A DNA stretch of 64,000 bases from a bacterium (GTDB lineage: Bacteria; Patescibacteriota; Dojkabacteria; SC72): assembly GCA_022840695.1 (NCBI GenBank), contig JALHDC010000004.1, positions 22,907 to 86,906 on the forward strand. The letters are read 5' to 3'. Below the pieces are notes generated by a model, which worked only from the letters and a program-made list of their open reading frames with translations, was not told where the DNA came from and made no database searches. This document shows, one piece after another, positions 12,516 through 45,228 of the stretch. Within the stretch, counting starts at the first letter, position 1. Every line of letters begins with the position of its first letter. The translations under genes were made by a program, and so were the position numbers.

Positions 12516-14018
12516 TTAAGTTATTCCAACTCTATCAATATACTCCTCCTTGTAATATCCAAAATACTCCTCTGGCATTAGTATTACTTTATCTATACCC
12601 AAATTCTTTACAAAATTAGGCTCATGACTCACTAAAAGAATAGTACCTTTGTATTCCTGTAGAGCATTTAAAAGTACACTCTGTGAATCTGGATCTAAAT
12701 ATGTGGTTGGCTCATCCAAAAGTAGTACATTATGTCCACCTGCAAACAGCTTAGCTAAAGCTAATCTTGTTTTCTCCCCTCCAGAAAGAGTTCTAACCTT
12801 TTGATCTATCATATCTCCAGTTAGAAGGAATCTTCCTAAGAATTTTCGCTTATCTATACTGCCCCAATCTAATTTGTATATATTTTCCCAAACGGTTTTT
12901 GAATAATCTAAATCTTCATTCTCTTGAGAGTAGTATCCTACATTAGTATTAAATCCCCATTTATATGATCCGGTAGTAGGTTCTAATCTCTCTGCTAATA
13001 TCTTTAGAAGTGTAGTTTTTCCCACACCATTTTTACCAATAATTGCAACTCTCTCATACCTCTCAACTTCAAAAGAGATGTCTCTAAGAACTGGAATATT
13101 CTTTACATACTCTTTTGATATATTCTTAACTTCTAATACCAATTTATTACTCTGTTGAGGGACTGGTATAGAGACTTGCATCTTTTTTCCTTTCCTTGTT
13201 CTCATTTCCAATTCTTTTACATTCTCTTTAAGTTCCTTGGCTTGCTCAAATCTTCTTGCTGCTCTCCTTTTCTCTTTAATACTTTTTCTTCCAGAAAGAG
13301 TTTGAGCTAATTGAAACATTTTTTTAGCTTTTCTTTCTTCGCTTAATAGTTGTTTAAACAGAAATTCATCTCTTAACTCCTTTACTTTCATAAATTGTTC
13401 ATAATTGCCTCTGTATACCTCAACTTTATGATCCCTTTCATTTAAATACCAAATTTTTGTAATTCCCTTATTCATTAATCTGAGATCATGGGAGACTACA
13501 AGTACTGCTTTTGGATATGTAATGAGATATCTCATCAACCATTCAGCGGAGGGTATGTCTAGGAAGTTAGTAGGTTCATCTAGTATTAGTAGGTCTGACT
13601 TTTCTAAGAGAATTCTAATAATCTCTATCTTAATTTTCTGTCCACCAGATAGTTCACTTAATTTAGAATCACAATCCTTATCACTCATTTTTAAGTGATT
13701 TAACAGTTTCTTTATCTCCCATTCTTCAGAATCTATACCTTTTTGAACAATGATATATTCTCCAATGGTTAAGTTAGAAAAATTATCTATATCCATTTGA
13801 TTATGTGTTTCTTGGGCAATGTATGATACTGATCCTTTTATCTGTATATCTCCATAATCTGGTTCTTCTAATCCTGCTATGAGTTTGAGTAGGGTAGTTT
13901 TTCCAGCACCATTTACTCCTACCAATCCTACCTTGTCAGTAGAATATAATGTAAGAGTAATATTATTTAATATTTCTTTGTTCCCTCTTTTAAGAGTTAT
14001 ATTCTCTATATTTAGCAT
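12516..14018 (-). CDS. ABC-F family ATPase (two ABC domains, EttA/Uup-like)
   Basis: Two Walker A motifs (GVNGAGKTT, GKNGVGKTT), two signature motifs (LSGGQK, LSGGEK), inter-domain linker. No TM domain. Confidence 0.85.
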   Translation of the reverse strand: MLNIENITLKRGNKEILNNITLTLYSTDKVGLVGVNGAGKTTLLKLIAGLEEPDYGDIQIKGSVSYIAQETHNQMDIDNFSNLTIGEYIIVQKGIDSEEWEIKKLLNHLKMSDKDCDSKLSELSGGQKIKIEIIRILLEKSDLLILDEPTNFLDIPSAEWLMRYLITYPKAVLVVSHDLRLMNKGITKIWYLNERDHKVEVYRGNYEQFMKVKELRDEFLFKQLLSEERKAKKMFQLAQTLSGRKSIKEKRRAARRFEQAKELKENVKELEMRTRKGKKMQVSIPVPQQSNKLVLEVKNISKEYVKNIPVLRDISFEVERYERVAIIGKNGVGKTTLLKILAERLEPTTGSYKWGFNTNVGYYSQENEDLDYSKTVWENIYKLDWGSIDKRKFLGRFLLTGDMIDQKVRTLSGGEKTRLALAKLFAGGHNVLLLDEPTTYLDPDSQSVLLNALQEYKGTILLVSHEPNFVKNLGIDKVILMPEEYFGYYKEEYIDRVGIT

Positions 14019-14114
14019 AGATGCAATTATATCAATATTTTAGTATTAGTACTGATAGAAATGAGTAAAAAGTATTTACAAAGGTTTTTTGATTTGTTAA
14101 TCTAAATTTAGTAT

Positions 14115-24448: not shown

Positions 24449-25192
24449 ATGGAAATAATGGTACCACAAATATCACAGGGTGCAATATATGAGTATAATC
24501 ATCATATTCAATCCCAAAAAGAGGAAGGATATGGTAAGCAATATAGCTTTGAAAAACTGGGAATAGAGGATTGGACTGTAGTTGAAATGGATTCTGACGA
24601 TGTTTTGAGATTACAAACATTTGTTGAGTCTTCTCAAACAGTAGCTCCTGCATATATCTTTTGGAAGGAATGTGGAAGGCATGTAACTTTAGAAAGTGTC
24701 GCAAGAGAAGTTATTGAAAGAGAAGAAAATATTCCTGAAGAAGCAAAAATATGGATACAAGGTATACTTGAGTCTAATTTTGATAAACAGGAAGTTGAAG
24801 AAAAAATAAAAAGTGGTGAGATAGATCCCCCATTAATCTTTTTTTCTGTGTTTAAAGGTGAGGAATTAGAGAATGGGTTATTAAAAGTTGGGAATATTTT
24901 AGATGGTAATCATAGATTTCAAAGAATTGCTAGGTACTTGTTGGAATGTAGTGATGAAGAAAGAGAAAATTTTAGGTTAACATGTTTTTTAGGAAAGGTA
25001 GATGTTATGAAATATGCAACTATAAATGCACAGTATTTTGTTAAACCAACTATTAAGAGAGTTAAAAACTTCTTAGAAAGATTTATGGGTAAAGAGGTGG
25101 AGAAGATAGATGAGAAACATTTTATGACTTTCTTTGAAAGATGGTATTTGTTATTACAAAGGATTGGATATTATAAAGAGGGAAGAGAATAG
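24449..25192 (+). CDS. hypothetical protein with a ParB/Srx-fold (ParB-like nuclease) domain
   Basis: 'LKVGNILDGNHRFQRIARYL' matches the DGxHR core of ParBc/DGQHR-type domains. Confidence 0.45.
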   Translation: MEIMVPQISQGAIYEYNHHIQSQKEEGYGKQYSFEKLGIEDWTVVEMDSDDVLRLQTFVESSQTVAPAYIFWKECGRHVTLESVAREVIEREENIPEEAKIWIQGILESNFDKQEVEEKIKSGEIDPPLIFFSVFKGEELENGLLKVGNILDGNHRFQRIARYLLECSDEERENFRLTCFLGKVDVMKYATINAQYFVKPTIKRVKNFLERFMGKEVEKIDEKHFMTFFERWYLLLQRIGYYKEGRE

Positions 25193-26012: not shown

Positions 26013-26203
26013 TCATTTCTCTTTGATATATATTCACTTAGACTTACTTTTTGAGATCCAAATAATCTAGCTTCTACAGACATTTTTGAGCATGGTTTAA
26101 TGGATCTTGTAGCAACCAAGGGAATATAGTGGGGCATATATTAACCTAGAATATAAAATTAGAGTGAGACAAAAAAACAGTATAAGGAGGGAAGGTTATG
26201 TTT

Positions 26204-27430
26204 TTATTTTAATACCTTAAGTATTTCTCTCCCAATGTTCTGACTAAATCCAGAATATGCCTTTTTCCCAACAAAAATAATAGGGTAATAACCATAATCC
26301 TCTGAAATACCCTCACTCTTTGAAATATTCCCCTTGTAAGCATTAAGCTGTGTACCGAAATCAGTATCAGTAGTTAAATGCTCCTCATACTCAATACCAT
26401 TCTCCTGAAAGAAGTCCTCCATCTCAACACACATAGGGCCAGTACCATTATGGAAAACTACAATACCATTGTTGCTACTCTCAACAATTCCCGAATCCCC
26501 CTCATTAAGATCTTCTACCTTGCATGGATTAGTCACATTCTCCTCCTCTTCATATGATATTGCAGGCCTAATCTTCTCTGGAGTATATGGGGCATTCTTG
26601 TTTACAGGTATCTGCCACATTGGCATAACCTTGTCTATACTTCCTAATGTATCTAAATCTACCCAATTCACCTCATAGCTATCCCAGAACCTATGCCACA
26701 TATCATTCCATCTCTCTTTGTACCCACCAATATATGTATGGGATACAGCCATGAACTTCTCATTTTGTATAGCTCTCTTGTACTGTGTCTCCATATCTCC
26801 TGTAGAGCCATTTCTTTCATAGAAGCTGTAATCACAGAAACTACCATATTTAAATTCTGGTACATCAATATTTGATACCGATATAATCTTCACATCATAT
26901 TCCTCTGGTTTGTATACTGTTGTAGCTAACTCTGTTGTCCCCCTTGCAGTAATATATTCAATACCCAATGCTTGTGCAACCTTAACTGTATTCTCATCTG
27001 ATGCCATGTACCTAGAACTAATTACTCTTGGAGTAACACCAAGATATGTTTGTGCATTTTCAATCATCTCAGAGATAATCTCATACTGCCTGTCATATGA
27101 CATACCCCAGAATGGCTCTGGATCATATGATGGTGCAAGTTCTACAACTCCTGATTTTAGAATCTCTTTTAGAACATCTGCATGCTTCTCTATGAAGCTA
27201 CCACTTACCATTAACAATCCTTTAACATCTCTCTCTTTCATATCATTTACCATATTTACCAATCCATCAGTATTTTGGAACTCAATGAGTAGCATCATGG
27301 CTTGTGGAGTAAGGGATTCTTTTTTAGGTGTATCTTTACAGACATATCGGTTAATGAGGAAATATTCTCCCACTAGAAGGAGTAGTATCCCAACTACTAA
27401 GGCTGGGATTAAGAGCAATTTTTTGTTCAT
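26204..27430 (-). CDS. membrane-anchored extracytoplasmic protein with a glutaredoxin/thioredoxin-like C-terminal domain
   Basis: N-terminal TM. C-terminus 'IVVFHNGTGPMCVEMEDFFQENGIEYEEH...YPIIFVGKKAYSGF' resembles glutaredoxin. The middle region is vaguely deacetylase-like. Confidence 0.4.
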   Translation of the reverse strand: MNKKLLLIPALVVGILLLLVGEYFLINRYVCKDTPKKESLTPQAMMLLIEFQNTDGLVNMVNDMKERDVKGLLMVSGSFIEKHADVLKEILKSGVVELAPSYDPEPFWGMSYDRQYEIISEMIENAQTYLGVTPRVISSRYMASDENTVKVAQALGIEYITARGTTELATTVYKPEEYDVKIISVSNIDVPEFKYGSFCDYSFYERNGSTGDMETQYKRAIQNEKFMAVSHTYIGGYKERWNDMWHRFWDSYEVNWVDLDTLGSIDKVMPMWQIPVNKNAPYTPEKIRPAISYEEEENVTNPCKVEDLNEGDSGIVESSNNGIVVFHNGTGPMCVEMEDFFQENGIEYEEHLTTDTDFGTQLNAYKGNISKSEGISEDYGYYPIIFVGKKAYSGFSQNIGREILKVLK

Positions 27431-27432
27431 TT

Positions 27433-27747
27433 TTAAATAGATAATAATTTAAAAAGATTTTTAACAATATTTTTTTTAGATTCTTCTAGATGATACATAA
27501 CATGTTGGCCATTTTTGGTACTTGAGATATACCCCATATCTTGTAATGTTTTGAGATGATGGGAGATGAGGTTATGTTTTAATTCCAGATTTTTAACCAT
27601 CTGGCATACGCAAGTATCTTTTTTGTAAAGGAGGCTGAGGATCTGGATACGGTTAATTACTAATAACTTCTCCAATTCTTTAATATTTTTCACTTCAAGA
27701 TGTTTCAACATATATTGAAATATACCAGTGGAGCATATTTCAGTCAA
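27433..27747 (-). CDS. ArsR/SmtB-family transcriptional regulator
   Basis: 'INRIQILSLL...CVCQMV...ISHHLKTLQDMGYISSTKNGQHVMYHL'. Confidence 0.75.
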   Translation of the reverse strand: MTEICSTGIFQYMLKHLEVKNIKELEKLLVINRIQILSLLYKKDTCVCQMVKNLELKHNLISHHLKTLQDMGYISSTKNGQHVMYHLEESKKNIVKNLFKLLSI

Positions 27748-27757
27748 GATTGAAATA

Positions 27758-28039
27758 CTATGGCTCTCTTTTGGTTATGGAGATTGCATATCCATTGATT
27801 AGGGCTTGTGAGATCTTCTGCATTACTGAGGTAAGATCTCTTTGATATTGGCTTTGAGATATGCCCATCATCTTAGCCGCATCTTCTTGATCTATGTGTT
27901 CTATATATCTCAATCTAAGTGTTTCTAACTCTTCGTCAGTTAGATTAACCTCTGTAAGCTCTCTTAGAGGTATTCCTCTTGGTTTGAAGTATGTATCATT
28001 AAATTGTATTCCTAGTCTTCTTCTGAATCGGGGTCTCAT
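27758..28039 (-). CDS. DUF134 (UPF0251) putative DNA-binding protein
   Basis: 'FKPRGIPLRELTEVNLTDEELETLRLRYIEHIDQEDAAKMMGISQSQYQR'. Confidence 0.65.
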   Translation of the reverse strand: MRPRFRRRLGIQFNDTYFKPRGIPLRELTEVNLTDEELETLRLRYIEHIDQEDAAKMMGISQSQYQRDLTSVMQKISQALINGYAISITKREP

Positions 28040-28040
28040 A

Positions 28041-28256
28041 CTAGCAATATTCTCCTCTTAGAGGGGTGCCGCATTTAGGGCAAATCTTTTTTGTACATGG
28101 TATTCCTCTTGTGTGTGGTTCTGTATATCCACAGTTAGGGCATTTACATTCCTTTGAGCCTCCAAGTCCTCTTCCTTTTAATCTTGGAAGGAAACCACGC
28201 TTTCTTCCAGTCATAGGGCCTTGTCCTAATGGCCCTGTACGGTCTAAGTTTGGCAT
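28041..28256 (-). CDS. small DUF5320-like protein (MP.LDRTGP.GQGPMTGR N-terminus, Cys-rich zinc-ribbon C-terminus)
   Basis: Signature N-terminal motif plus CxxC..CxxC. Classic neighbour of DUF134. Confidence 0.55.
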   Translation of the reverse strand: MPNLDRTGPLGQGPMTGRKRGFLPRLKGRGLGGSKECKCPNCGYTEPHTRGIPCTKKICPKCGTPLRGEYC

Positions 28257-28274
28257 ATTAATATATTAACAATT

Positions 28275-28300
28275 TAGTTATGGGTATATACCCATAACTA
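28275..28300. promoter_or_regulatory. 26-bp perfect palindrome TAGTTATGGGTAT|ATACCCATAACTA, 19 bp upstream of the DUF5320-DUF134-ArsR operon start
   Basis: Exact inverted repeat verified base by base. Likely operator. Confidence 0.55.
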
Positions 28301-28458
28301 AGTATATATCATTTTGAAATGGGGAGTCAATAGTTTGGGATGTGTTAGGAATGAAGTGTTCCGTAATGGGGAGGGTACAGGTCTGGAATCATATTCTCTA
28401 ATTTTGACATCACTAATAACGAGTGATAAACTTATTAATAACTTGTATTTTCTATTAA

Positions 28459-30195
28459 ATGAAAAACCCTTTCCTAAAACTTTCTGAATTAAAACTTGGA
28501 AAGAGACAAATAATAATTATTAGTATTGTTATTGTAGTTTTAATAGTTATCTCTTTGTTTGTATATTTCGTATTAAGAGGAAAAAATCTCCCAACATCTA
28601 TTAATAACAATGCACAAAATACTTTTGAAAAAGGATATGCAGATGATTCTGAAGAAGCATTAACTACATTCGCTCAACCCTATGATACTGAAGATACAGA
28701 TCCAACATATGATCTTTATGGGGAAGTAGGTACTCCTCCAAATGAAGACTTTAGTCATGATAGTGTGCAAATAAGTTCTGATTTTAGCCCAGATTCCGAA
28801 GAATGTAGCATGTCTGAAGAGGGAAGTTGTATAGATTTAGGAAGAGAAAAAACGGTTATGCCTAATCACTCTACAGTCAATCTTACTGTATGGGAATCGT
28901 ATGCGATTGAATGGAGTGATGATGATCTCCCAGGTGGAAGAGTAGGTCTTAAGGCTTATGCTGTATTACCTGATGCCTCTATGGCTACGATATATGATAG
29001 TACAAAGGTCCAATTCAATTTCTATGATAAAGAGACAAGGATTGTACAGATGGAAGGAGAGGTATATTACCGTGCAAAACCACAAGAGGATGATCATGTC
29101 CTTACAGTACAAGCGGGAGACAGATTGATAGAGTTGAATGATGCTGAAGCGTATGTTCAAATTATACATGATACTGATGCGGAAACAGCTAGGTATGAAG
29201 AATGGGAGAAGTTAGAGAAGGAGCTAGGCCTTGAAGATAATGATTATTATTATGATAATGGGGAATTAGATTTGGAAAAATATGAGAAATACCAACGCTC
29301 ATCAGAAGAATATCGTAAAGAGATTGAAAATAGCAAGGGAGATATATATGCAATATATGTATATATAACATCTGGTAATGCAAAGATTACATCAAGATCA
29401 GATAGAAATACTGTTCTTTCTGAGCTGAATGGAGATAATCCATTTACAATCCTTAAATATAGAGAGCCTGAGGAGAATACTAGGGTATATTTTGATGCTG
29501 AGCAGGAGGAGATAGATGAAAAGAAGGAGAAGTTGGCGACTGGTTATGAATCAACAGAATTTATGTCCAATCTTACTTTTTCTATGTCCAATTATGGAAT
29601 TGGAAATTTTGCAGAAGTATCCACAGAAGATCTTGTTAATATGTTACAGGTAAATATTAATACAATAGAACCCCAAGCTAGGAAAACTACTGCATGGTAC
29701 AAAGATGATATGGAGAATTTCCTTAGTGATTGGAATGAATTTATAGAGAAAACTTCTTGTAAGGCTGGTTGGTATAAAGCGACAGATACGACGTGTTGTC
29801 CCGATGGATATATATGGGATTCATCTAGGCAATTATGTACAAAGACTACTTATACATATTACTGTAATGATGGATATACTCTTGGATCAGATAATATGTG
29901 CCATAAAACAGGCTCGACTAGTGAATCTGTTAAACCGACAGTAGGAAATACTCCTGCTTTTACCTCAGGAAATTGTCCTCCAGAAGGTGATATAGTCATA
30001 ACCTGGTGTTATCCAGAAGATGGCAATACAAAATCAGGATATGTATTTTGTGGGTATAAAATTGTTAATAATAAAGAGAAGTATTGTCAAGATACTGTGT
30101 TAGGGGGAGTTAAAATGGTTTGTGGAAATGTGGGAGATGGGGAAATTCCCAAAACATGTCTTCCTAACGGATTTAATAACTGGGTAAATCCATAG
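28459..30195 (+). CDS. hypothetical secreted protein with a C-terminal Cys-rich region
   Basis: N-terminal TM. Acidic middle. C-terminal C..GY..C repeats. Confidence 0.45.
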   Translation: MKNPFLKLSELKLGKRQIIIISIVIVVLIVISLFVYFVLRGKNLPTSINNNAQNTFEKGYADDSEEALTTFAQPYDTEDTDPTYDLYGEVGTPPNEDFSHDSVQISSDFSPDSEECSMSEEGSCIDLGREKTVMPNHSTVNLTVWESYAIEWSDDDLPGGRVGLKAYAVLPDASMATIYDSTKVQFNFYDKETRIVQMEGEVYYRAKPQEDDHVLTVQAGDRLIELNDAEAYVQIIHDTDAETARYEEWEKLEKELGLEDNDYYYDNGELDLEKYEKYQRSSEEYRKEIENSKGDIYAIYVYITSGNAKITSRSDRNTVLSELNGDNPFTILKYREPEENTRVYFDAEQEEIDEKKEKLATGYESTEFMSNLTFSMSNYGIGNFAEVSTEDLVNMLQVNINTIEPQARKTTAWYKDDMENFLSDWNEFIEKTSCKAGWYKATDTTCCPDGYIWDSSRQLCTKTTYTYYCNDGYTLGSDNMCHKTGSTSESVKPTVGNTPAFTSGNCPPEGDIVITWCYPEDGNTKSGYVFCGYKIVNNKEKYCQDTVLGGVKMVCGNVGDGEIPKTCLPNGFNNWVNP

Positions 30196-30229: not shown

Positions 30230-30425
30230 TACTGTGTAAGGCTTTCTCCTTCGAACCGAAGGGTAGTGAAAACTAGTCAAAATATGGGTATTCTCATCCA
30301 CCAGGATGTGAAATTGAAATACTTAAATTTAGAGAAGAAATAATGAAGCAACCAAGGGATTCCTAGTTATAGTGGACGGGTCTTGTCGCAACCTGGAAAG
30401 AATGGCGGGATGGACAGGACTCGAA
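30230..30425 (-). repeat. copy A of a ~190-bp direct repeat ending in a tRNA-Asp 3'-end-like fragment (GTTCGAGTCCTGTCCATCCCGCCA)
   Basis: Aligns with 34355..34548 (~75-80% identity), including 'CCTTCGAACCGA(A)GGG', 'TCATCCACCAGG', 'AGTGGACGGGTCTTGT' and the tRNA 3' 24-mer (2 mismatches). No intact tRNA is present here. Confidence 0.7.
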
Positions 30426-30566
30426 CGAAGCTAAGATATTAGTAAGCAGTTAAAAGATTTCTTTAATCAGAGGTTCGAGCATCTTCCTCATAATAAACAG
30501 GTCATATATGTAGAAAATCTTATATTTCTATAACATACGTAAAACCGTATTCTTTGGAAACAAAAA

Positions 30567-31574
30567 CTACCTTAACATATAAAAACTATTCTTAGTACTA
30601 CCCTGTTTTTCTAAATAACCCTTTGAAACAAGACCATCTAGAAGATTGAAAGCCTGCTGTCTAGATATATCTAGATCCTTTGCAACATCAGAAGAAGTAA
30701 TCTCTTTGTACTTCTTAATTAGATCTAATACATCCTTTTCTCTATTTGTAGGACGCATATCAAAAGAAATATTCTTTAAACCTTCTTCTATCTTAGCTAA
30801 TGCAGACTGTAGAGAATATTTAACACCATCTGTAAAATACTCCAGCCATTCTGTTTTATCTCCACTATCTGCAGAGTGTAGGGAGTCAGAATACTGTATC
30901 CTATCAATATCATAGTAATCATCAAGTACAAAATACTTATTTATCTTGTATCCTAGTTGATCTAAAAGAAGAGTAGTGCTTAATCTACAAACTCTACCAT
31001 TACCATCTACAAATGGATGAATATATACAAACTCATGATGATATATACCTGCTTTAAGTATGTCTAAATCTTCTGAGGTGTTTGTCCAATCTATTAACTC
31101 CTCAAGTAGTTTTTCTATTCCTTTCTTAGTATGTTCTGGTGGATCATGCTTTACGACCACAGTACCTTTATCAGAGGGATTTCCAACTACAACCTTTCTA
31201 TCTCTTATATCTCCTGCAATTTCATCTTCAACTCCTTCTAAGAGTTCTTTGTGGATCTTTAATATCGTATCAATATCTAAAGTGTCATATTCTTTCCCTA
31301 TCTGTTTTAGGATATTAAAGTAGTTCTTTACTTCTTTTTCATCTCTGTTTGCCGGTACCCTTCCTCCAAGTATTAAATTAGTAACTTCTTCTTGAGAGAG
31401 TGGGTTACCTTCAATGCTATTAGAAGAAAAAGATGATTTAACAAGATTGTGTTTTTCTAGATTAAGAAGTAAATTTTTAGGAACTACTTGTGATTCTAAT
31501 TGACCATAGAGTCTTTCAATTGAAGATATATTTTCTAAGAGTTTTTTACTTAGTTTGTACTTAGGATTTAACAT
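30567..31574 (-). CDS. Fic/Doc-family protein (putative AMPylator or toxin) with a C-terminal winged-helix domain
   Basis: Fic motif 'HPFVDGNGRVCRL'. Confidence 0.8.
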   Translation of the reverse strand: MLNPKYKLSKKLLENISSIERLYGQLESQVVPKNLLLNLEKHNLVKSSFSSNSIEGNPLSQEEVTNLILGGRVPANRDEKEVKNYFNILKQIGKEYDTLDIDTILKIHKELLEGVEDEIAGDIRDRKVVVGNPSDKGTVVVKHDPPEHTKKGIEKLLEELIDWTNTSEDLDILKAGIYHHEFVYIHPFVDGNGRVCRLSTTLLLDQLGYKINKYFVLDDYYDIDRIQYSDSLHSADSGDKTEWLEYFTDGVKYSLQSALAKIEEGLKNISFDMRPTNREKDVLDLIKKYKEITSSDVAKDLDISRQQAFNLLDGLVSKGYLEKQGSTKNSFYMLR

Positions 31575-31589
31575 AGTTTATTATATGGA

Positions 31590-31635
31590 TTCGTCAAACA
31601 ATTGTCAAGTTATTTGACAATATAATTGACAACAA
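31590..31635. promoter_or_regulatory. operator-like repeats upstream of fic: palindrome TTGTCAA-gttat-TTGACAA plus a third TTGACAA
   Basis: Seen in sequence, 28-60 bp upstream of the fic start. Confidence 0.4.
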
Positions 31636-31729
31636 CATTATGGAATTACCCACAGAAAATATAGTAAGGTGAACGAGAATGTAACGGAATCTCAGATTAG
31701 CGAATACTCAAATTCTTCTGTTATATCAA

Positions 31730-31915
31730 CATTCTGACTTCGAATCGAGGAGATATAAATATGCGACGTTTTAGGAGTATTTCTATACACCAGGCCTAAT
31801 TTCTGAAAACTCGTTTTTTGAAGGTCGAAACAATCAAGGTTTAACAACCTTTCTAAGAGGTAGTACACGGGTCTATAAAGAACCAAAGGAATATGGCGGG
31901 ACATACGGGTCTGGA
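31730..31915 (-). repeat. copy C of the ~190-bp tRNA-Asp-associated direct repeat (more degenerate)
   Basis: 'CACCAGGCCTAATTTCTGAAAACTCGTTTTTTGAAGG' matches copy B 'CACCAGGCCTTACTTTTGGAAACTTCATTTTTTAAGG'. 'GTACACGGGTCTATA...AATATGGCGGGACATACGGGTCTGGAACC' matches the tRNA 3'-end region of copies A and B. Confidence 0.6.
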
Positions 31916-31925
31916 ACCTACTATC

Positions 31926-32537
31926 CTATACTTGAATAATTTTTATAGAATCATCTTTTATCCAAACATACTGTTGATTAGTAAGTGGAAGTATTTTAAC
32001 TCCTTCTGTATACATAGTATCTATTCCACTTAAATATTCATCATGGAATATATCACTTCCCCAATGGGGTAAAATAGATAAATCTACAATCTCTAATCCT
32101 GTTTTAGCTGCTATATTCAGACTTTGTAGGAATGTAGGCATTAATTTCCCAGTGACAAATGTTTCGGATTTGTCAGTAGTTCCTATAAAAGGTATTGGCT
32201 CTCCATCATAAAGTTTATCTAAATCTGGTATTTGAGAAATAATATTCCTCATTACGATTCGATTCCCTTCAACTGTATTTCTAAAAGCAATTGCTCCAAG
32301 CTTACCTCTTAATCCCCATCTTGCAGATGTCCCACATAACATATTTAAGTAGGAAGCTATGGTGTATTGATTCTCCCGATGACTAGACTTACTTTGTATA
32401 AATGAGATGTGTGGTCCATAAAATGTTTCCAAATTTGCCCTTGTGCTTATTGCTAATTGTAATGTTGAAGCTGCACTAAAAGTTGTAAAAATAGGCTTAA
32501 GTGTTTTTAATGCTTCGAAGTCTAGTTCTTCAATCAA
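31926..32537 (-). CDS. hypothetical protein, probably an N-terminally truncated gene remnant (weak metallophosphoesterase-like motifs). Uses a TTG start; the frame is open upstream to 32774 without an ATG.
   Basis: Manual upstream translation '...AIFPVAGNSHSEH-LIEELD...' with no ATG. Weak GNH-like motif. Confidence 0.35.
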   Translation of the reverse strand: MIEELDFEALKTLKPIFTTFSAASTLQLAISTRANLETFYGPHISFIQSKSSHRENQYTIASYLNMLCGTSARWGLRGKLGAIAFRNTVEGNRIVMRNIISQIPDLDKLYDGEPIPFIGTTDKSETFVTGKLMPTFLQSLNIAAKTGLEIVDLSILPHWGSDIFHDEYLSGIDTMYTEGVKILPLTNQQYVWIKDDSIKIIQV

Positions 32538-32784
32538 ATGTTCTGAATGACTATTCCCAGCTACGGGGAATATTGCTTTTGAACCTGAATTAACAGCTTG
32601 ATTAAATTTTGCAATTCTTTCAGCATCGTTACCCTGTAAGGCTGTATGATCCTTAACTTCGAAACCGAGAGAGTTAAGATATTCTTCTATTTCAGAGTTT
32701 CTATGAAAACGTTCGTCTTGTTGGGATGAGGGATTTACTAGCGATACAGTTGAATCTTTAGATAGCTATTCTGGTTTATTAAAC

Positions 32785-33396
32785 TCAATTTCCATTCTTA
32801 AATAAAATTCTGTCAAAAATAAGATTATTATCAAAACATGCAATTTCTAAATCTTTTAATTTCAAATAGTCTTCGTTAAAAACTTTTTCAGAGGGTTTGT
32901 AGTGAGGTATTAAAATTATATTTTCTAATATCCCGAAACCATGTCTGACTGTATAATCTTCTTTTGAAAGGTCTAAATATCCTTCGCATAGCAGTGCTGC
33001 TCCTGCGCTTAATCCTACCAATATCCCATCAAAGGTCTTTAAGAGAGAAATAAAATGCTTGTAGATTCTCTTCTCTTTTAATATTGTAATGAAAACTTCA
33101 GGATCTCCTGATCCAAGATATACGATACTTGAATTTGTAAATAAGTCAGTCAGTATCTTTTTGCTATATCTTTTTTTATGTAATCTAACGATATTTATTG
33201 AACATCCTAAATTCGCATATTCTGTTTCAAAGGCATTTATATAGTCGTTTCTATCACCAGAAGATGTTGGGAAGAATAAAACATTTAAGGGCAGATGATT
33301 CTCTTGCGCTATAAATATTACTTTTTTGTCGATTTCTTTGGTCTCTCCTGACCATATTCTACCGCCTCCAATAAGTATTCTAATTTTTCTTTTCAT
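32785..33396 (-). CDS. peptidase S51 (peptidase E / cyanophycinase-like) family protein
   Basis: 'VYLGSGDPEVF...LVGLSAGAALLCE' nucleophile-elbow region. Confidence 0.65.
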   Translation of the reverse strand: MKRKIRILIGGGRIWSGETKEIDKKVIFIAQENHLPLNVLFFPTSSGDRNDYINAFETEYANLGCSINIVRLHKKRYSKKILTDLFTNSSIVYLGSGDPEVFITILKEKRIYKHFISLLKTFDGILVGLSAGAALLCEGYLDLSKEDYTVRHGFGILENIILIPHYKPSEKVFNEDYLKLKDLEIACFDNNLIFDRILFKNGN

Positions 33397-34184
33397 CTAT
33401 ATCGAATAAAATATTATTTATTAGCTGGGATTGTTCGAATGTAATACCATATCTATTCCCAGCGGTTTCCATTAAGAGTTTCAATTTAGTTATTTCCATG
33501 TCATTAAGTGAAGAGATTATATTTTTTGTATTTACTTTATATTTAAGCATTTGTGTTAGTACTATTTGTCTTACTTCAATAGGGTATTCTCCGTTTAGAA
33601 TGTTGCTAAATTTTACTTTATCTAATTCGATTGCTAGGAGATTTCTTATTTCTCTGAGAATTTTTAAATATAGAGGGTAGACAAATTGATTTTCTTTTGT
33701 TTTCTTATACTTCAATACGAGTGTACAGATAAGTCTATTTATTTTGGTGTTATCGATAATACTTGTTCCGAAACTTGCTTTTGTATCTTCAGTACCAATA
33801 AAGCTTTGCTCATTCATAATACTTTCGATATCTTTATTAATTACAGAAAACAACTTCTTAATAATGTCTTTATCTTTGGATACTCCAATTATTAACTTCT
33901 TCTCCGCAAGGCATAAAGGAAAGGGCAATTATTTGCTTATTATTTTTTTCATACCAATCATCTAGATAGTTTCTTATAACTTGGTTATAAAGATCAACAA
34001 GATTTTCAGCATTTGCACGTCCATTTTTTGCTACAAAGACGCCAAGATTATCAAGATCTCCAGTTATTGCCCATAAATGAGAGTTGTTTTTATACTCAGA
34101 ATATCTTTGAAAAACAGAGACTATATGTGGATTGTAATAATATCTCCAATCAGTTTCGGAGATTCTATCTTTATTTCTAATCAA
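33380..34184 (-). pseudogene. degenerate GGDEF-like (nucleotide cyclase palm) gene split by a frameshift into a 104-aa N-terminal ORF (34184..33870) and a 182-aa C-terminal ORF (33928..33380). 'CGEE' replaces GGDEF.
   Basis: N-part 'ITGDLDNLGVFVAKNGRANAENLV...ALSFMPCGEE' parallels 'IYFDMDNLKTINDTYGHKMGDKAIL...ARLGGDEF' of the bona fide GGDEF at 34653. After a 1-nt shift in GAGAAGAAG the C-part continues 'KLIIGVSKDKD', matching 'FIIVVEEITGS'. Confidence 0.5.
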
Positions 34185-34354
34185 TGATTTTGTAATAAAA
34201 TATATTATTACAAAGCTATCTTATCATAGTCTAGTCTAAATAGAAAGTTATGGAAGGGTGTGTTGCTTTATGATATTCATAGGAAATTTCTGATGTAAAA
34301 TTACTTCTATGAGCAAATAAAGATTTGTTTTTTGACATGCCTTTTTGTTTTGTA

Positions 34355-34524
34355 AAATAAGGCTTCTACCTTCGAACCGAGGGCTCTAAAAAATGCATGT
34401 TTTTTGACTCTTTTCATCCACCAGGCCTTACTTTTGGAAACTTCATTTTTTAAGGCCCAAATAACTCAATCTCCATAAGGGTTTTAAAAGATAGTGGACG
34501 GGTCTTGTTGGAACATGTTGAAAA
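34355..34524 (-). repeat. copy B of the ~190-bp direct repeat (downstream flank of the intact tRNA-Asp)
   Basis: See copies A and C. Confidence 0.65.
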
Positions 34525-34601
34525 TGGCGGAATGGACGGGACTCGAACCCGCAACCTTCTCAGTGACAGTGAGATGCTCTAACCAATTGAGCTACCACTC
34601 C
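34525..34601 (-). tRNA. tRNA-Asp (anticodon GTC), CCA encoded
   Basis: Manual cloverleaf: GGAGTGG/CCATTCC acceptor, anticodon loop CTGTCAC, T-arm GCGGG-TTCGAGT-CCCGT. 74 nt plus CCA. Confidence 0.85.
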
Positions 34602-39753: not shown

Positions 39754-42700
39754 ATGAAAAATATTCAAAAGCATTTTAACGGGAGGAAACTGATTGTAAT
39801 CATGTGTATTTTTACTGTACTTACATTTCTTCCGATAGTAATATACCTATATCTTTCTAAAACCATACAGAGTGTAGCATATACTACATTAGACAATTTT
39901 AATAACACAGTTTATTTAGATATTGCTAATTCCACTAATTATTCCATTTCAAATGGATCTGTAAAAGTAGAACAAATCGCATATGGATATGGTACAGGAG
40001 CTGATGGCGCATGTACTGTGTCAGCAAATAAGGAAATAAATACGGGTAGTTGTGTTGGTAGAGCAAATGGAGATGCTGTAAATTTTAGGGTTACGGCCAA
40101 TGTTGCAGCTGGGAGTAATTCTGTTACATTAAGTTCTGCTCCTACAGGGTTAGCCATTGGAGACGAGATATTAATAATTAATCTACAAGGAACAGCAGCA
40201 GATTATGGAAATGTAGGGAAATATGATACGGCATATATTACTGGGATTAATGGTAATACTCTGGCCTTAGATAGTAATCTTGTTAATGGATATGATGGAA
40301 CAACACAGAAAATTATGGTTCAGAGGATACCACAATATACTGATGTAACTATAAATGCAGGTGTTAACTGGTATCCTTCTGCTTGGGATGGAACAAAGGG
40401 AGGAGTAATGATGTTTAAAGCAAATGGTACAGTTACAGTCAACGGTACTATTACGGTAGCAGGCAGAGGATATAGAGGAGGAGCAGCAGATATAGCAGGA
40501 GGTGCTGGTGAGACATTTGGTGGATATAATAGTGGAACAGGTGGAGATTATAATTTATATGGAGGTGTAAGTGATAGAGGAGAAGCTGGAAATATGGGGG
40601 GTGGAGGAGGCGGTGGCGGAAATTATCAGCATGCAAGTGGTGGGAATTCTGTTGGTGGTGCAGGTTCAGCAACAGGTGGTGCAGGAGGAGGAGGTGGTGG
40701 TGGATCAGGACTTGATTTTAGAAGATCTAGAGGAGGAGGTGGTGGAGGTGGAGGATATGGTACTGCTGCAACCGCAGGGGGTGGTTATCAAGCAGGTACT
40801 TCTGGAGGTACTAATGTGAGTGGTAATGGTGGAAGTGGAAGAGGAAGTAGTAATACAGGAACAGGAGGAGGTGGTGGTGGAGGTGGGACATATGGTGTTG
40901 CTGATTTAAGCAAAGTATATTTTGGTTCAGGAGGAGGTGGAGCAGGTACAGGAGGTCCTAGGAGAGGAGGAGCTGGAGGAATTGGGGGTGGTATTGTTAT
41001 AATATCAGCAAATTCGTTAACTGTAGAACCAACAGCTGGAGTAATTACAGCTGGAGGTTATGCCGGCAGTAATGCTGCATATTATGGACAATGGGCTTGT
41101 GCTGCTGAAGGATCTGGAGGAGGAGGTGGTGGTGCAGCTGGTGGATCTATTAAACTAATTACAAACTCAACCACTGCTGGAACTAATAGAATAAATAGTG
41201 ATGGTGGGAATGGTGGATTAGGAATATGTCATAATGGTGGTAATGGAGGTTCAGGAAGGGTAAGGATTCAATATGTATCATCTTTATCAGGAACAACTAG
41301 ACCTGCTGCAAGTACATTACAAGCTCCTTTATATAAAGATAGTATGATTTTACAATCGCTTGATTTAGTTCATATTGATAGTAATGCTGCAGTTCTTTCT
41401 TTTGCATATTCACTCTCTTCTAGCCCAGCAGGGACATCTAGTTCTGTTCAGTTTAGTACTGATGCGCTTACATGGTACAATTCTTCTGGGAATTTGGGAG
41501 GATCAGATTCTCTTTCTGTTGGTGTAGACAATATAATAGATCTTACAGCATTAGAATGGTTAACTCCTACCTTCTTCTACAAGATTACAACTAATACTAA
41601 TGGAGCAAGTACACCTGTTTTAGATAGCGTCTCTTTGAACTATGATATAACACCATCTGTACCAACGATCGGTGAACCAGAGGCCTTATCTACAGATACA
41701 ATAAGATGGAATTTCACAGATAACGCAACTAATGAAGAAGGTTTTATCTTAGTCGATGAGGAAGGAACCCTTATAAAATACTGCCTAGGAGAAAATCTTA
41801 CATACTGTGATGAAACAGGTTTGCAAGAGAACACTCAATACACAAGAGGAGTTAAAGCATATAATGCTCTCGGAGAGAGTGTATCTTCTGAAACAGCAAC
41901 GGTTTATACCCTCGTTTCAGTTCCTTCCATATTTCCTGGAGGTAGTAAAACAGCTTCCTCATTAACACTTTCTGCTTTAGGTCAAGTCAATAATTCTGAA
42001 ATATATTTTGACTGTGAAAATACAGGCTGTGATACTGGTATAAATGAATGGATATCAACAAGTACGGATGAAGTTACTAATCTTGATTTTAATACTCCAT
42101 ACACATTTAAAGTAAAAGGAAGGAATGGAGATAGTATCGAAACTCCATATTCTGAAAGTATCACGGTATATACATTAGCAGAAGTCCCTTCCATTTCCTT
42201 AACACCACTTTCATCTACATCCGTTACTCTAACAGCGGAAGGTATCAATAATGTTAATGAAGGTAACTCTGGTGTATTCTTTGAATGCGAAGAAGAGGAT
42301 TGTAGTGAAGGAATAACGGAATGGGTACAATCAGAAAGTACAACTGTAACAAACTTAGATCCCAATAGACTATATTTCTTTAGAGTAAAAGCTAGGAATT
42401 TTGATGGAGTAGAAAGTACATTCAGTGAATATATGGGAACATACACAAAGTCCAGTATTCCTAATATTCCAACAGTAGTTTCTCAGACAACAAATAGCAT
42501 AACTATCGCTCTCTCATCTGATAATAATCCAGAAGGTACACAGTATGCCATTATGGAAGAGAAAAGTGGAAAATATGTTGATATATCAACAGGTAGTTTG
42601 GTGGATGATCTAGTATGGGGGACATATACTCAATTCGGATCTGCGAATGGTAAAGAGGTAGTAGGTTTAGAAGTAGGTACAGAATATATATTTAAAGCAA

Positions 42701-45228
42701 AATCTAGAAATGAGGATGATATAGAAAGTGACTTCTCACAATCGGTTACTACCGCAACAAAATTAAATACTCCAACACTTCTCTCGGCTCTTACAACTAC
42801 CACAAACTCATTTACTTGGAGAGTAACAGATGAGAATGCCTCTAAAGTAGGATACAGAATATATGATAGTAACAACAATCTACTTCTAACCTGTTCTGTA
42901 AATACAATGAATCAATGTATAGAAGGAGGTCTTTCTTCTAATACTGAATACTCGAGAAAAGTTAAAGTATACAGTAATATTTCCGAAAGTGACTACTCCA
43001 ACACATTCCTCTTCTCTACATATTCTGAACCCTCAAATATCTCCTCACTGACTGCAGTAGGACCAACATCATTGAGATTAACGATATCTGGAAGTAGTAG
43101 AGATAATTTGCAAATAATGGAAAACAAAAGCAATCGATATTACAGCAATGACTTGAAGGTTCTTACAAGTACATCATCTATGATTCCATTTGCCTCTACT
43201 ATAGATATTGATGGCCTACTCCCAAATACACAGTATGAGTTTAAGATTAGAAGCTTAAATAGAAGGAATATTGCAACAGCATGGTCATCAAACCAATCCA
43301 CATATACATTGGCTCAAAGACCTGCCATGGTTAGAGTAAATGCTGTATCAAGCAATAGTGCTAGAGTATATATTAATTCCTTGGACAATCCTGCGGATAC
43401 AGAACTATTAATTAGAGAAAATAATACTGGTAACTATATAGATTTCAATACTGGAAGGATATCTACTCAGGAAGTATGGGGAACATTCGCGAATTTTGGT
43501 TCGACCAATGGAATTCTCCTTTCTGGATTAGAAGTAGGAACACAGTATGGATTTTCTGTAAAAGCTAGAAACAAGCTATTAGCTCAAACTGATTGGAGTG
43601 ATCCAATATTCATAGGAACGGGAGCAATTTTACAAAATGTTGATGCTAATTTAAGAGCTACATTAACAAATCAGGAAGTAGATTTGACTTCAAGAAGCAA
43701 TGCTCAATTTGGAGAAAAGATTGTTAGAGTAAAGAAAGGAGATATTCTGGTAGCAGATGTCCCTGTCCTATTTAACCAAGATCGTGATTGGGCCAATGCA
43801 GTTATACTAAGTTCCTCAACTGAAAGAAAAAGTGTGGTTAAGCTTGGACAATCTCATGGTGTCTCTAAACCATATACTATGTATGTAAACAGAGATGATA
43901 CAAATGGTTTTCTCATCTGTCCTGCAGTTTCAAAATTGGAAGATGTAAAAGAAAATTGTTTAGGTGGTGTAAGATTTACAGGAAATTTTCCTCAAACAAG
44001 AAGTGTAGAGGGAGTAAATGTAACTGTTTCTCAGACAGTTATAGGTGGAATTAATTATTGGATAGCTGATGGTCTAACAGGAACGGGTGGTTTAGGTTTC
44101 TATTTCGAAGAGCCTGTAAAAGAGACTCCTGTTAAAGAAGAAGTGAAAGAAGAGGGAAAGAATGAAACTTCTGCTGAAGGAAAGAAAGAAACCACTTTAC
44201 AAAAAATAGTGACTGTTTTAAGTGAAGGATACACTGTATTACAGAATGCAAAAAATAGTGCACTGGGTATTTTAGATAATACAGTGGTTAAGGATCTAAA
44301 AGAAAATGAGTTACAAACTGTTTCTACAACAGCTAATGTTGTTACTGTAACAGTAGGGACAACTGCACTGCTTGGAGGTTTAACACAATTAGGCTATGTA
44401 ATAGTACAATTCTTTGCTGTTGTATTAAGCTCCTTTGGTTTTAGAAAGAAAAGAGTTAATTACGGTTTTGTATATGATTCAAATACTAAGGAGCCTGTTC
44501 ATATGGCCTTAGTAAGAATATACAATACTAGAAAAAGATTGATGGATACTGCTGTTACAGATGTTAATGGAAGATTCTCTGCAAGTTTAAATAAAGGTAA
44601 GTATACAATTGAAGTATCTAAGTCTGGTTATGAGTTTCCTAGTGTATATGTAAAAGGTTCTCAAGACTATCCTTTACAAAATGTGTATACAGGAGCTTTA
44701 GAAATCCTTTCTGAAGATGCCGAGGTTCAGGTTGCAGTCCCTATAGATCCTAAAGAGATATTAGGAGCTATGATGTTCTTCTACAGAACAAAAAATGTGT
44801 TGCTTAAAATCCTTTCTGTTGCCAATATCTTCATATTCTTAATTGGTGTTGTTATTTCCTTCTACACATACTTCACTCATGAAAATGTCACAAATTTAAT
44901 GCTTTTGCTTCTTTACATAATTCCATTTGTAATATTGGTTAGATCTTTTGTTAACAAGAAGGGACAGTATGGAAAAGTAGTTGATGAAAATGGTAAATCT
45001 TTGTCTGGAATATCTGTGATAATAAGGGAAAAGGAATTTGATAAGGTGATTGCTAAGAGAGTAACAAATTCAAAAGGTAAGTATAGATTTATATTAGATA
45101 AAGGTAAGTATGAATTGGATATAGATGAAAAAGGTTATGAATTGATAGATATAAAGAGGGGTAGCTTAATAGATGTCAGAAGAGATAACTATGTTTTAAC
45201 AAAGAGAATTAAGGTGAAGAAGAGCTAA
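39754..45228 (+). CDS. giant (1824-aa) surface protein: signal anchor, Gly-rich low-complexity region, ~7 fibronectin type-III-like repeats, and a C-terminal CarbopepD_reg/TM anchor module shared with ORF 2..1543
   Basis: Repeated FN3-like segments ending in '...Y.F.VKARN..G.ES..S' motifs. (GGN)n-encoded Gly tracts. C-terminal ~330 aa paralogous to the C-terminus of the first ORF. Confidence 0.7.
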   Translation: MKNIQKHFNGRKLIVIMCIFTVLTFLPIVIYLYLSKTIQSVAYTTLDNFNNTVYLDIANSTNYSISNGSVKVEQIAYGYGTGADGACTVSANKEINTGSCVGRANGDAVNFRVTANVAAGSNSVTLSSAPTGLAIGDEILIINLQGTAADYGNVGKYDTAYITGINGNTLALDSNLVNGYDGTTQKIMVQRIPQYTDVTINAGVNWYPSAWDGTKGGVMMFKANGTVTVNGTITVAGRGYRGGAADIAGGAGETFGGYNSGTGGDYNLYGGVSDRGEAGNMGGGGGGGGNYQHASGGNSVGGAGSATGGAGGGGGGGSGLDFRRSRGGGGGGGGYGTAATAGGGYQAGTSGGTNVSGNGGSGRGSSNTGTGGGGGGGGTYGVADLSKVYFGSGGGGAGTGGPRRGGAGGIGGGIVIISANSLTVEPTAGVITAGGYAGSNAAYYGQWACAAEGSGGGGGGAAGGSIKLITNSTTAGTNRINSDGGNGGLGICHNGGNGGSGRVRIQYVSSLSGTTRPAASTLQAPLYKDSMILQSLDLVHIDSNAAVLSFAYSLSSSPAGTSSSVQFSTDALTWYNSSGNLGGSDSLSVGVDNIIDLTALEWLTPTFFYKITTNTNGASTPVLDSVSLNYDITPSVPTIGEPEALSTDTIRWNFTDNATNEEGFILVDEEGTLIKYCLGENLTYCDETGLQENTQYTRGVKAYNALGESVSSETATVYTLVSVPSIFPGGSKTASSLTLSALGQVNNSEIYFDCENTGCDTGINEWISTSTDEVTNLDFNTPYTFKVKGRNGDSIETPYSESITVYTLAEVPSISLTPLSSTSVTLTAEGINNVNEGNSGVFFECEEEDCSEGITEWVQSESTTVTNLDPNRLYFFRVKARNFDGVESTFSEYMGTYTKSSIPNIPTVVSQTTNSITIALSSDNNPEGTQYAIMEEKSGKYVDISTGSLVDDLVWGTYTQFGSANGKEVVGLEVGTEYIFKAKSRNEDDIESDFSQSVTTATKLNTPTLLSALTTTTNSFTWRVTDENASKVGYRIYDSNNNLLLTCSVNTMNQCIEGGLSSNTEYSRKVKVYSNISESDYSNTFLFSTYSEPSNISSLTAVGPTSLRLTISGSSRDNLQIMENKSNRYYSNDLKVLTSTSSMIPFASTIDIDGLLPNTQYEFKIRSLNRRNIATAWSSNQSTYTLAQRPAMVRVNAVSSNSARVYINSLDNPADTELLIRENNTGNYIDFNTGRISTQEVWGTFANFGSTNGILLSGLEVGTQYGFSVKARNKLLAQTDWSDPIFIGTGAILQNVDANLRATLTNQEVDLTSRSNAQFGEKIVRVKKGDILVADVPVLFNQDRDWANAVILSSSTERKSVVKLGQSHGVSKPYTMYVNRDDTNGFLICPAVSKLEDVKENCLGGVRFTGNFPQTRSVEGVNVTVSQTVIGGINYWIADGLTGTGGLGFYFEEPVKETPVKEEVKEEGKNETSAEGKKETTLQKIVTVLSEGYTVLQNAKNSALGILDNTVVKDLKENELQTVSTTANVVTVTVGTTALLGGLTQLGYVIVQFFAVVLSSFGFRKKRVNYGFVYDSNTKEPVHMALVRIYNTRKRLMDTAVTDVNGRFSASLNKGKYTIEVSKSGYEFPSVYVKGSQDYPLQNVYTGALEILSEDAEVQVAVPIDPKEILGAMMFFYRTKNVLLKILSVANIFIFLIGVVISFYTYFTHENVTNLMLLLLYIIPFVILVRSFVNKKGQYGKVVDENGKSLSGISVIIREKEFDKVIAKRVTNSKGKYRFILDKGKYELDIDEKGYELIDIKRGSLIDVRRDNYVLTKRIKVKKS
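40540..41225 (+). repeat. Gly-rich low-complexity coding repeats ((GGN)n) inside the giant gene
   Basis: Runs of ggtggaggaggtggt... They generate mirrored antisense pseudo-ORFs (40451..40672, 40571..40819). Confidence 0.6.

Follow-up and report, generated by a model that had tools for sequence, protein, structure and literature searches.

A tRNA-Asp gene followed by co-oriented repeats

The window analysed here is a stretch of 64,000 nucleotides (64 kb) on contig JALHDC010000004.1 of a Dojkabacteria genome (assembly GCA_022840695.1), and the system under study is an array of repeats that extends from the 3′ end of its tRNA-Asp(GTC) gene. An original prediction, made from the sequence alone, had placed an intact tRNA-Asp(GTC) at this position, followed by direct repeats of its 3′ end plus flank. 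ARAGORN and Rfam agreed on a single intact gene (Rfam tRNA, 72.1 bits), and a repeat search, a MAFFT alignment and an nhmmer profile recovered three co-oriented copies of a repeat made up of the last 24 nucleotides (nt) of the tRNA and about 170 nt of adjoining sequence (profile positions C 34355–34551, B 31723–31920 and A 30237–30427). The similarity among the three copies was far above chance, with alignment scores 12.7 (C–A), 13.1 (C–B) and 7.2 (A–B) standard deviations over 300 shuffles; global pairwise identities were 68% (C–A), 68% (C–B) and 60% (A–B), lower than the 75–80% estimated originally. Similarity clustered in the invariant blocks GGTTCGAGTCCCGTCCAYYCCGCCA (the tRNA end), AAGACCCGTCCACTAT, CCTGGTGGATGA and GGTTCGAAGG, and the block AGACCCGTCCACTA, searched with up to two mismatches, occurred in the 64 kb only at the three copies (0.14 expected). 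Copies B and A have no tRNA body, and ARAGORN called no tRNA at either; copy A terminates in GTTCGAGTCCTGTCCATCCCGCCA, as had been noted. The initial inventory of three copies held and was incomplete: it lacked a fourth, decayed copy (profile positions 17–110), beyond which a sensitive profile search found no further copies in the 64 kb.

Read in tRNA orientation, each unit of the repeat consists of the tRNA 3′ end or its 24-nt imitation (the head), terminating in CCGCCA, and the ~170-nt sequence directly after it (the body). Body C shows the order spacer, AAGACCCGTCCACTAT, middle region, CCTGGTGGATGA and GGTTCGAAGG. The units delimit segments of accessory genes, called cassettes here, which are listed with their joints in Table 1. 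Loci from other genomes are numbered with the prefix L. In one relative, L037, tRNA-Asp is followed by a single unit with an alpha-type body and then by the homologue of the open reading frame (ORF) at 28459–30195; the two tRNA-proximal cassettes, by which the window is 4.1 kb longer, are absent. This comparison, which had been suggested with the original prediction, agrees with successive site-specific insertions at the tRNA-Asp 3′ end, as proposed originally, with the repeats as their marks.

Table 1. Joints, arms and cargo genes of the tRNA-Asp array in the window.
Feature	Position	Strand	Evidence and remarks
tRNA-Asp(GTC), anchor of the array	34525..34601	-	ARAGORN, Rfam; final CCGCCA (34525-34530) is junction 1 and exchange point, the latter assigned from mapping in related loci
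Body C, ~170-nt arm directly after tRNA CCA, read as left arm (P′) of cassette 1	34352..34524	-	nhmmer 192.7 bits, alignments
Cargo of cassette 1	31919..34351	-	ORF calls, Pfam
Two overlapping family-less ORFs, cassette 1	33870-34184, 33380-33928	-	Pfam
S51 peptidase, cassette 1	32785-33396	-	Pfam Peptidase_S51, E = 8e-15
ORF with weak S66/S51 matches, cassette 1	31926-32537	-	Pfam
Head B, class II tRNA-like, GGTTCCAGACCCGTATGTCCCGCCA, ends in CCGCCA (31894-31899)	31894..31918	-	Junction 2, right end of cassette 1; class recurs in many loci
Body B, most diverged copy, left arm of cassette 2	31723..31893	-	nhmmer 119 bits
Fic-domain protein with C-terminal winged helix, cargo of cassette 2	30567..31574	-	Pfam Fic PF02661, E = 5e-20; MarR_2, E = 4e-6
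Class III extension (~100 nt) and head A, GTTCGAGTCCTGTCCATCCCGCCA	30403..30530	-	CCGCCA 30403-30408 is junction 3, right end of cassette 2
Body A, left arm of cassette 3	30232..30402	-	nhmmer 166.3 bits
Cargo of cassette 3	26204..30195	both	Pfam
578-aa family-less ORF, cassette 3	28459-30195	+	Homologue is first cassette after tRNA-Asp in L037
DUF5320 (weak), cassette 3	28041-28256	-	Pfam
DUF134, cassette 3	27758-28039	-	Pfam
ArsR-type helix-turn-helix protein, cassette 3	27433-27747	-	Pfam
Polysaccharide deacetylase, cassette 3	26204-27430	-	Pfam
Junction 4, decayed: class II extension (CCTCCTTATACTGTTTTTTTGTCTCA...) and degenerate head (...TATGCCCCACTA), then decayed body	26043..26195	-	nhmmer E = 6.5e-7; core remnant ~26127-26132

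The unit marks strictly polar arrays in many genomes

An exact two-block pattern scan of one genome per species and of JGI metagenomes yielded about 90 AT-rich loci, whose host labels were mostly Candidatus Dojkabacteria, Patescibacteria or 'Saccharibacteria'; GC-rich matches to the pattern (Streptomyces and others) lay inside genes and were rejected as chance. With a profile built from 39 units, 190 unit copies were found in 90 loci, 56 of which contained two or more (up to five within 8 kb), with start-to-start spacings of 664–10216 nt (median 1510). None of the 56 multi-copy loci showed mixed orientation. The dispersed repeat or miniature inverted-repeat transposable element that had been offered as an alternative therefore fails, given this uniform polarity and the absence of copies elsewhere in the window. 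In at least 18 of the scanned loci the first unit comes directly after a genuine tRNA-Asp; elsewhere the same body follows tRNA-Ser(GCT), tRNA-Ser(GGA) or tRNA-Ser(CGA), and all of these tRNA genes end in YCCGCCA. CCGCCA was present at all 157 full-length joints, in each case as the end of a tRNA-like head and never as a bare hexamer.

Heads fall into classes that are accompanied by their own upstream extensions. The class II head is GGTTCCAGACNYGTATGTCCCGCCA, preceded by TTTTTATACTGTCTCTTTTGTCTCATTTTA, and together with its extension looks like a diverged tRNA-Asp 3′ half starting from the anticodon loop (ACTGTC). The class III head is nearly identical to the tRNA, and the ~100 nt upstream of it contain GCTCGAACC, inverted relative to GGTTCGAG of the head. 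In the window, the class II head of copy B lacks the usual extension, copy A belongs to class III and the decayed fourth copy is of class II. The class III extension at junction 3 contains GCTCGAAC, inverted relative to GTTCGAG of the head, and this extension of cassette 2 is kept in L005, L034, L038, L054 and L060. The class II extension plus head (AAGACAC..TTTTTATAGTGTCCCATTTGTC..GGTTCCAGACCC..GCTCCGC) was also seen three times in a tRNA-Ser(GCT) array of L179 (17167–17315, 18156–18210 and 19512–19649), a distant Patescibacteria genome in which the bodies of that array are otherwise different. Because it is kept at such a distance, this sequence suggests a functional right-end site rather than a decaying tRNA fragment. 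The spacer, middle and tail of the unit each occur in several types that reassort freely, and TGATATAAT boxes lie downstream of many units.

Several short motifs recur within the unit. GTCCAC in the first block and GTGGAT in the second form an imperfect inverted repeat about 70 nt apart (for example at 34492–34505 and 34416–34425 of the window), the head holds a third, direct copy of this block motif (CCCGTCCA), and GGTTCGA is found in both head and tail and, in inverted form, in the class III extension. This pattern looks like a set of repeated, putative protein-binding motifs derived from the tRNA T-arm. In L089, from a higher-GC lineage, tRNA-Asp is followed by a hairpin and T-run resembling a terminator and, about 115 nt further on, by a duplicated tRNA-like head joined to a body (3539–3730), such that the array starts away from the tRNA's own 3′ end. 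An ATG in the class II head and an ORF of 70 aa in copy B raised the possibility of a small protein encoded by the unit, which was rejected, as length differences between copies are not multiples of three and other copies run into stops. A viral origin found no support: scans of IMG/VR gave one true match, L005 (an array end beside a recombinase element), and otherwise GC-rich chance matches.

The cargo of the arrays is highly diverse and accessory. ORFs in the cassettes lie on both strands relative to the units, 150 array ORFs matched 110 Pfam families, and all-against-all clustering left 121 singletons among the 225 ORFs called in the loci (conserved flanking genes included). Recurrent cargo comprised radical SAM and HD proteins, sortases with a surface protein, short-chain dehydrogenases, NUDIX and GNAT proteins, methyltransferases, DUF4932, AbiEii, HSP20 and Fic.

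Exchange between arrays is confined to CCGCCA

To map the exchange point, 7551 junction pairs were screened for those in which two loci were 97–100% identical on one side of the joint and unrelated on the other. In 14 pairs the body and the downstream cassette were common (~100% identity) and the upstream sequence was unrelated, with the first mismatch 7–15 nt 5′ of the CCA end; in 12 pairs the upstream cassette, extension and head were common and the body was not, with the first mismatch at +1 to +4 after CCA. There was no pair in which upstream sequence and body were common but the downstream sequence was not. Exchange is thus confined to CCGCCA, since all 26 clean one-sided pairs break there. 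One cassette, for example, sits next to the tRNA in L133 and at an internal position, after a class III head, in L144, and the two versions are 100% identical from CCGCCA on. It follows from this exchange point that the mobile module consists of body, cargo, extension and head. The ~190-bp repeat had originally been regarded as a duplicated att core; with the exchange limited to the terminal CCGCCA, the 170-nt flank is instead an arm carried by the element. The tRNA joint is attL-like and the internal joints are attP-like (P arm, core, P′ arm), which explains why the repeat is so much longer than an att core. A histogram of BLAST breakpoints was uninformative here, as alignments run through the homologous unit regardless of linkage.

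A different cassette boundary, at the tail GGTTCGAAGG, such that the unit would move together with the upstream gene, was considered and rejected, having no supporting pair against the 26 and holding for the older pair of window and L037 alone. Two truncated joints were seen at this tail: in L122 (3480–3545) the start of a class II extension is fused to it, and in L176 (14222–14272) the tail alone is left, adjoining recombinase-side genes. The unit tail may therefore be a secondary recombination or deletion site.

A large serine recombinase lies beyond the last unit in related arrays

Six-frame translation of the window and of 600 kb of arrays gave 1212 ORFs, among which phmmer and hmmsearch detected no XerC-, XerD- or lambda Int-like protein at E ≤ 10, and the 25 Pfam families most often matched by the 150 array ORFs included no recombinase family. 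Distal to the last unit of L144, however, lies a gene for a large serine recombinase of 433 aa with Resolvase, Recombinase and Zn_ribbon_recom domains (Pfam), which earlier regex motif searches had been too weak to detect. Orthologues with 75–83% identity are present in L133, L160, L122, L125 and L057, together with a degenerate fragment in L118, 0.9–4.2 kb beyond the last unit and always in the opposite orientation. The recombinase family in Patescibacteria is large, with members of ~435 aa and identities of 62–96%.

Seven further recombinase contexts from six distinct genomes were looked up, among which L180 duplicates L179 and L178 ends 1.9 kb after the gene and is uninformative. In the other five (L176, L179, L181, L182 and L183) the recombinase gene is convergent with a tRNA-Asp or tRNA-Ser gene, with no to three cassettes between them, and homologues of the body follow CCGCCA (E = 1e-8 to 3e-11 with the unit profile). 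L176, from the same genome as L062, shows the order tRNA-Asp joined to a unit, one cassette, a tail remnant, a DUF2779 gene, a gene for a 468-aa protein and the recombinase, and then restriction-modification genes, a Terminase_6C protein, a small ORF and a ParB_N/N6_N4 methylase. In L181 a body directly follows tRNA-Ser(GGA), and just 263 nt separate the stop codon of the recombinase from the tRNA 3′ end, and in L179, L182 and L183 tRNA-Ser and body are followed by one to three genes or cassettes and then by the recombinase. L179 has, in addition, a second array, the one at tRNA-Ser(GCT) with class II extensions and heads. Overall, the same topology, with the array on the 3′ side of the recombinase gene and that gene convergent with the tRNA, was found in 11 of 12 recombinase loci.

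A common gene order precedes the recombinase in distant Patescibacteria (L176 35–11308, L178 2230–11302, L179 4187–11308, L181 6733–11314 and L182 2615–7305): a ParB_N/N6_N4 methylase (~435 aa), a small ORF (~135 aa) and an ORF of ~500 aa with a Terminase_6C match in two loci. Variable restriction-modification or helicase genes separate the recombinase from the terminase-like gene in two loci (L176 and L178) and are found upstream of the ParB-methylase gene in the other three. Genes for a capsid or portal were not seen in these five loci, and the gene set linked to the recombinase could be a satellite-like element or a hotspot of defence genes. In the window, tblastn found no remnants of the recombinase, of the ParB-methylase or of the terminase-like gene. 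With no recombinase nearby, the window array is at present an orphan. The original view of decayed islands from which no integrase survives does not fit: tyrosine recombinases are missing throughout the 600 kb of arrays, and the segments are small modules that have kept both conserved ends and look like members of a non-autonomous cassette family.

Cassettes mobilised in trans as the probable origin of the array

We consider it probable that small, non-autonomous integrative cassettes have been inserted in tandem at the very end of the tRNA-Asp gene and that the repeats mark where one cassette meets the next. A cassette would comprise, in tRNA orientation, the body as an arm of ~170–200 nt directly after CCGCCA, usually a promoter of its own, one to five cargo genes in either orientation and, as its right end, a conserved extension with the 24-nt head, again ending in CCGCCA. 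Through site-specific recombination within CCGCCA, a cassette in circular form, whose head|body junction is attP-like, would be joined either to the end of the tRNA or to another joint, producing an array of the form tRNA|body-cargo-head|body-cargo-head|body..., in which the ~190-bp repeat represents the short core and the arms of three related cassettes. The best candidate for the enzyme is the large serine recombinase of ~435 aa, which would act in trans. An element bearing it would integrate where tRNA-Asp or tRNA-Ser ends in YCCGCCA, the body being its arm next to the tRNA, and cargo-only derivatives with both ends would be excised and inserted in trans by the same enzyme. Such derivatives would pile up between the tRNA and the recombinase gene, and an array such as that of the window could outlast the nearby enzyme. 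The crossover and the association of the recombinase with the arrays are observed; that this enzyme is the catalyst, that circles occur as intermediates, and the order in which the cassettes arrived are what we infer.

Several observations weigh against this model. The serine recombinase is tied to the joints by position only, searches of the 64-kb window found no recombinase of any type, which leaves present mobility of its array without support, and neither a circular form nor an empty site within a single population was observed. Some older comparisons break elsewhere than at CCGCCA: L080 and L121 at CCTGGTGGAT, L031 and L151 as well as L037 and window copy A at GGTTCGAAGG, such that the insert distinguishing the window from L037 is bounded at the unit tail. 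Our explanation for these breakpoints is homologous exchange between bodies, or else a secondary site. The sites of large serine recombinases are normally 40–50 bp long with inverted half-sites, and these enzymes are not known to recombine attP with attL; a conserved arm of 170 nt and repeated insertion at a site already occupied do not follow from this textbook behaviour. A relaxed choice of sites is on record for the Ccr recombinases of staphylococcal cassette chromosome (SCC) elements.

A classical alternative, that each segment was formerly an autonomous island or prophage whose own tyrosine integrase was later lost by deletion, would account for direct repeats of the tRNA 3′ end in tRNA orientation, for accessory cargo and for a relative lacking the segments, and tandem islands with partial tRNAs are known from the tycheposons of Prochlorococcus. 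Independent decay, however, would leave integrase pseudogenes and ragged ends, whereas the 600 kb of arrays contain no tyrosine recombinase or fragment of one, junctions are a median of 1.5 kb apart with both conserved ends intact in about 150 cases, and identical cassettes occur at different array positions with clean CCGCCA boundaries; we therefore regard this origin as quite unlikely. Homologous recombination by RecA through the 170–190-nt unit, with Campbell-type integration of one-unit circles, would require no dedicated recombinase at all. RecA, RecX and RecJ are encoded in the window, the units are mosaics of reassorting modules, and some breakpoints, including the difference between window and L037, fall at the longest conserved blocks. 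It is nevertheless the 26 clean one-sided pairs, 97–100% identical and hence the most recent, that break within CCGCCA without exception, where head and body classes share 6–9 nt, far too few for RecA, while the conserved blocks of 15–20 nt are rarely used. This route is accordingly unlikely as the source of the arrays.

The invariant blocks separated by variable stretches could also belong to a structured non-coding RNA, or to a regulatory element, that is transcribed together with tRNA-Asp and has been copied ahead of accessory genes, particularly as GTCCACTA and TGGTGGAT can pair as a long-range helix of 8 bp that is kept through two-sided changes in three diverged copies. Among 58 units inspected, though, about 12 copies break this helix one-sidedly against the 3 that compensate, the fold energy is no better than that of shuffles (z = -0.25), RNAalifold finds one helix only (covariation term -0.07) and there is no Rfam match at the gathering score or at E ≤ 1. 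The sharp exchange at CCGCCA would be left unexplained, and an RNA is a very improbable basis for the repeats. Hardly more credible is single-strand transposition of the HUH type (IS200/IS605-like) to the 3′ side of CCGCCA, with non-autonomous cassettes mobilised in trans. Every module does start exactly 3′ of CCGCCA and end in CCGCCA with strict polarity, and YCCGCCA is rare in this AT-rich genome, with five sites in the 64-kb window, three of them at joints. Against this, the other two sites are unoccupied, the sequence at the 157 full-length joints is a tRNA-like head and not the bare hexamer, Y1 transposases are absent from the 25 most frequent array families with no other enzyme candidate, and it is a serine recombinase that is positionally linked to the arrays.

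Relation to known cassette and island systems

Full-text searching of the literature found no description of the system. The closest known systems are SCC composite islands, arrays of tycheposons and tandem ssrA islands, and, by function alone, integrons. Like the cassettes mobilised in trans that we propose, SCC elements form tandem, co-oriented cargo cassettes at the 3′ end of one conserved gene (rlmH/orfX) with short integration-site repeats between them, and some, the pseudo-SCC elements without ccr, rely on the large serine recombinase of a neighbour; a composite of PsiSCC, an SCC with ccrC and SCCmec has been described (10.1101/336396). The arrays studied here differ in their anchor, a tRNA-Asp or tRNA-Ser gene instead of rlmH, in joints with long arms (~170 nt on one side and 35–100 nt on the other, compared with an SCC repeat of ~20 bp), in a median junction spacing of 1.5 kb instead of tens of kb, in their Patescibacteria hosts, and in the distal position of the recombinase beside ParB/methylase and terminase-like genes. 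With respect to the features that characterise SCC, a large serine recombinase accompanies the array in 11 of the 12 recombinase loci of relatives and is absent from the window, and a short crossover sequence, CCGCCA, is repeated at every joint (157 joints, 26 pairs).

In Prochlorococcus, successive integrations of tycheposons at the same tRNA push older elements inward (10.1101/2020.12.28.424599). Shared with the present arrays are the partial tRNA copies between elements and a streamlined genome with few other mobile elements (10.1101/2020.12.28.424599); tycheposons, however, were identified as integrase-carrying elements in irregular arrays with degraded integrases, whereas about 150 cassettes here have no recombinase and keep both ends across species. 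As in an integron, one fixed platform gathers many diverse accessory cassettes of ~1–2 kb that lack a recombinase. As here, chromosomal Vibrio integrons have repeats that are homogeneous within a lineage. Unlike in integrons, there is no IntI-type tyrosine recombinase in the window or the 600 kb of arrays, alignments of 39 and 58 sequences revealed no attC-like hairpins with RYYYAAC/GTTRRRY boxes at the unit ends, the cassettes, instead of being mostly promoterless and aligned behind the promoter of a platform, have promoters of their own and occur in both orientations, and the anchor is a tRNA 3′ end. A further likeness is to Dehalococcoides, in which several islands follow one another at the 3′ end of a small-RNA gene, ssrA (tmRNA), each delimited by a direct repeat of this 3′ end (PMC3146451). 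Displaced tRNA 3′ fragments acting as direct repeats, as expected of an Islander-type island, are present as the heads at 31894–31918 and 30403–30427, and an integrase inside each island is found neither in the window cassettes nor in the ~150 others. The Dehalococcoides islands are reportedly larger and carry their own integrases, with a repeat that is a displaced gene end lacking a long conserved arm. In short, judged by their defining features the arrays are neither integrons nor Islander-type islands, and they resemble the logic of SCC.

It is a possibility, put forward tentatively, that the arrays constitute a phylum-wide gene-capture platform of Patescibacteria that serves as an integron does but is built from other components: a CCGCCA dock, a recombinase of ~435 aa and hundreds of recombinase-less cassettes of 1–2 kb. 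In such a platform docking would take place at the 3′ CCGCCA of tRNA-Asp or tRNA-Ser, the attP-like ends of the cassettes would derive from a tRNA 3′ half, the enzyme would be linked to ParB/methylase and terminase-like genes, and the whole could be a main route of accessory-gene exchange in reduced genomes. Patescibacteria (also known as the candidate phyla radiation, CPR) have tiny genomes, and little has been described of how they gain and exchange accessory genes. If the interpretation is correct, one tRNA-anchored locus with a defined 6-nt crossover and a candidate recombinase would hold a large part of the variation in gene content between strains of Dojkabacteria and relatives, and the mode of gene capture, the iterative action of a large serine recombinase on an occupied site and the signals in the arms (accessory or directionality) would become testable. 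Genome-engineering toolkits would gain new material in the recombinase and its sites, and the unit is a cheap annotation marker of hypervariable regions in CPR metagenome bins.

Cargo and surroundings of the window array

Among the cargo genes named originally, the Fic gene and the S51 peptidase were confirmed by Pfam. The ORF described as phosphoesterase-like gave just weak S66/S51 matches, and the frameshifted ORFs taken for a GGDEF-like gene matched no Pfam family and were negative in a tblastn search with the neighbouring GGDEF protein. The Fic gene has a perfect sigma-70-type promoter (12/12; TTGACA-17-TATAAT, 31580–31608), which overlaps TTGTCAA/TTGACAA inverted repeats just upstream of the gene (31580–31641), and autoregulation through the MarR-like C-terminal winged helix of the protein appears plausible. 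A Fic homologue lies upstream of a class III extension and unit in L054, in the same layout as in the window, and another downstream of a unit in L060, where the contig ends.

Beyond the decayed fourth joint, an ORF of 247 aa (24449–25192, plus strand) has as its homologue in L086 the first cassette gene after tRNA-Asp, and the variable region may continue past this joint, though without detectable units. At 10–20 kb beyond the array, a PIN-domain toxin with a small upstream ORF (region of 13713–14126; L171 13417–14126), a NUDIX gene and many family-less ORFs form an accessory-rich stretch, likewise without detectable units. On the other side of the array, an ORF of 1824 aa (39754–45228) lies right after a tRNA-Leu/tRNA-Val pair, and its first kb has a GC content of 0.445, compared with ~0.32, and a strong GC skew.

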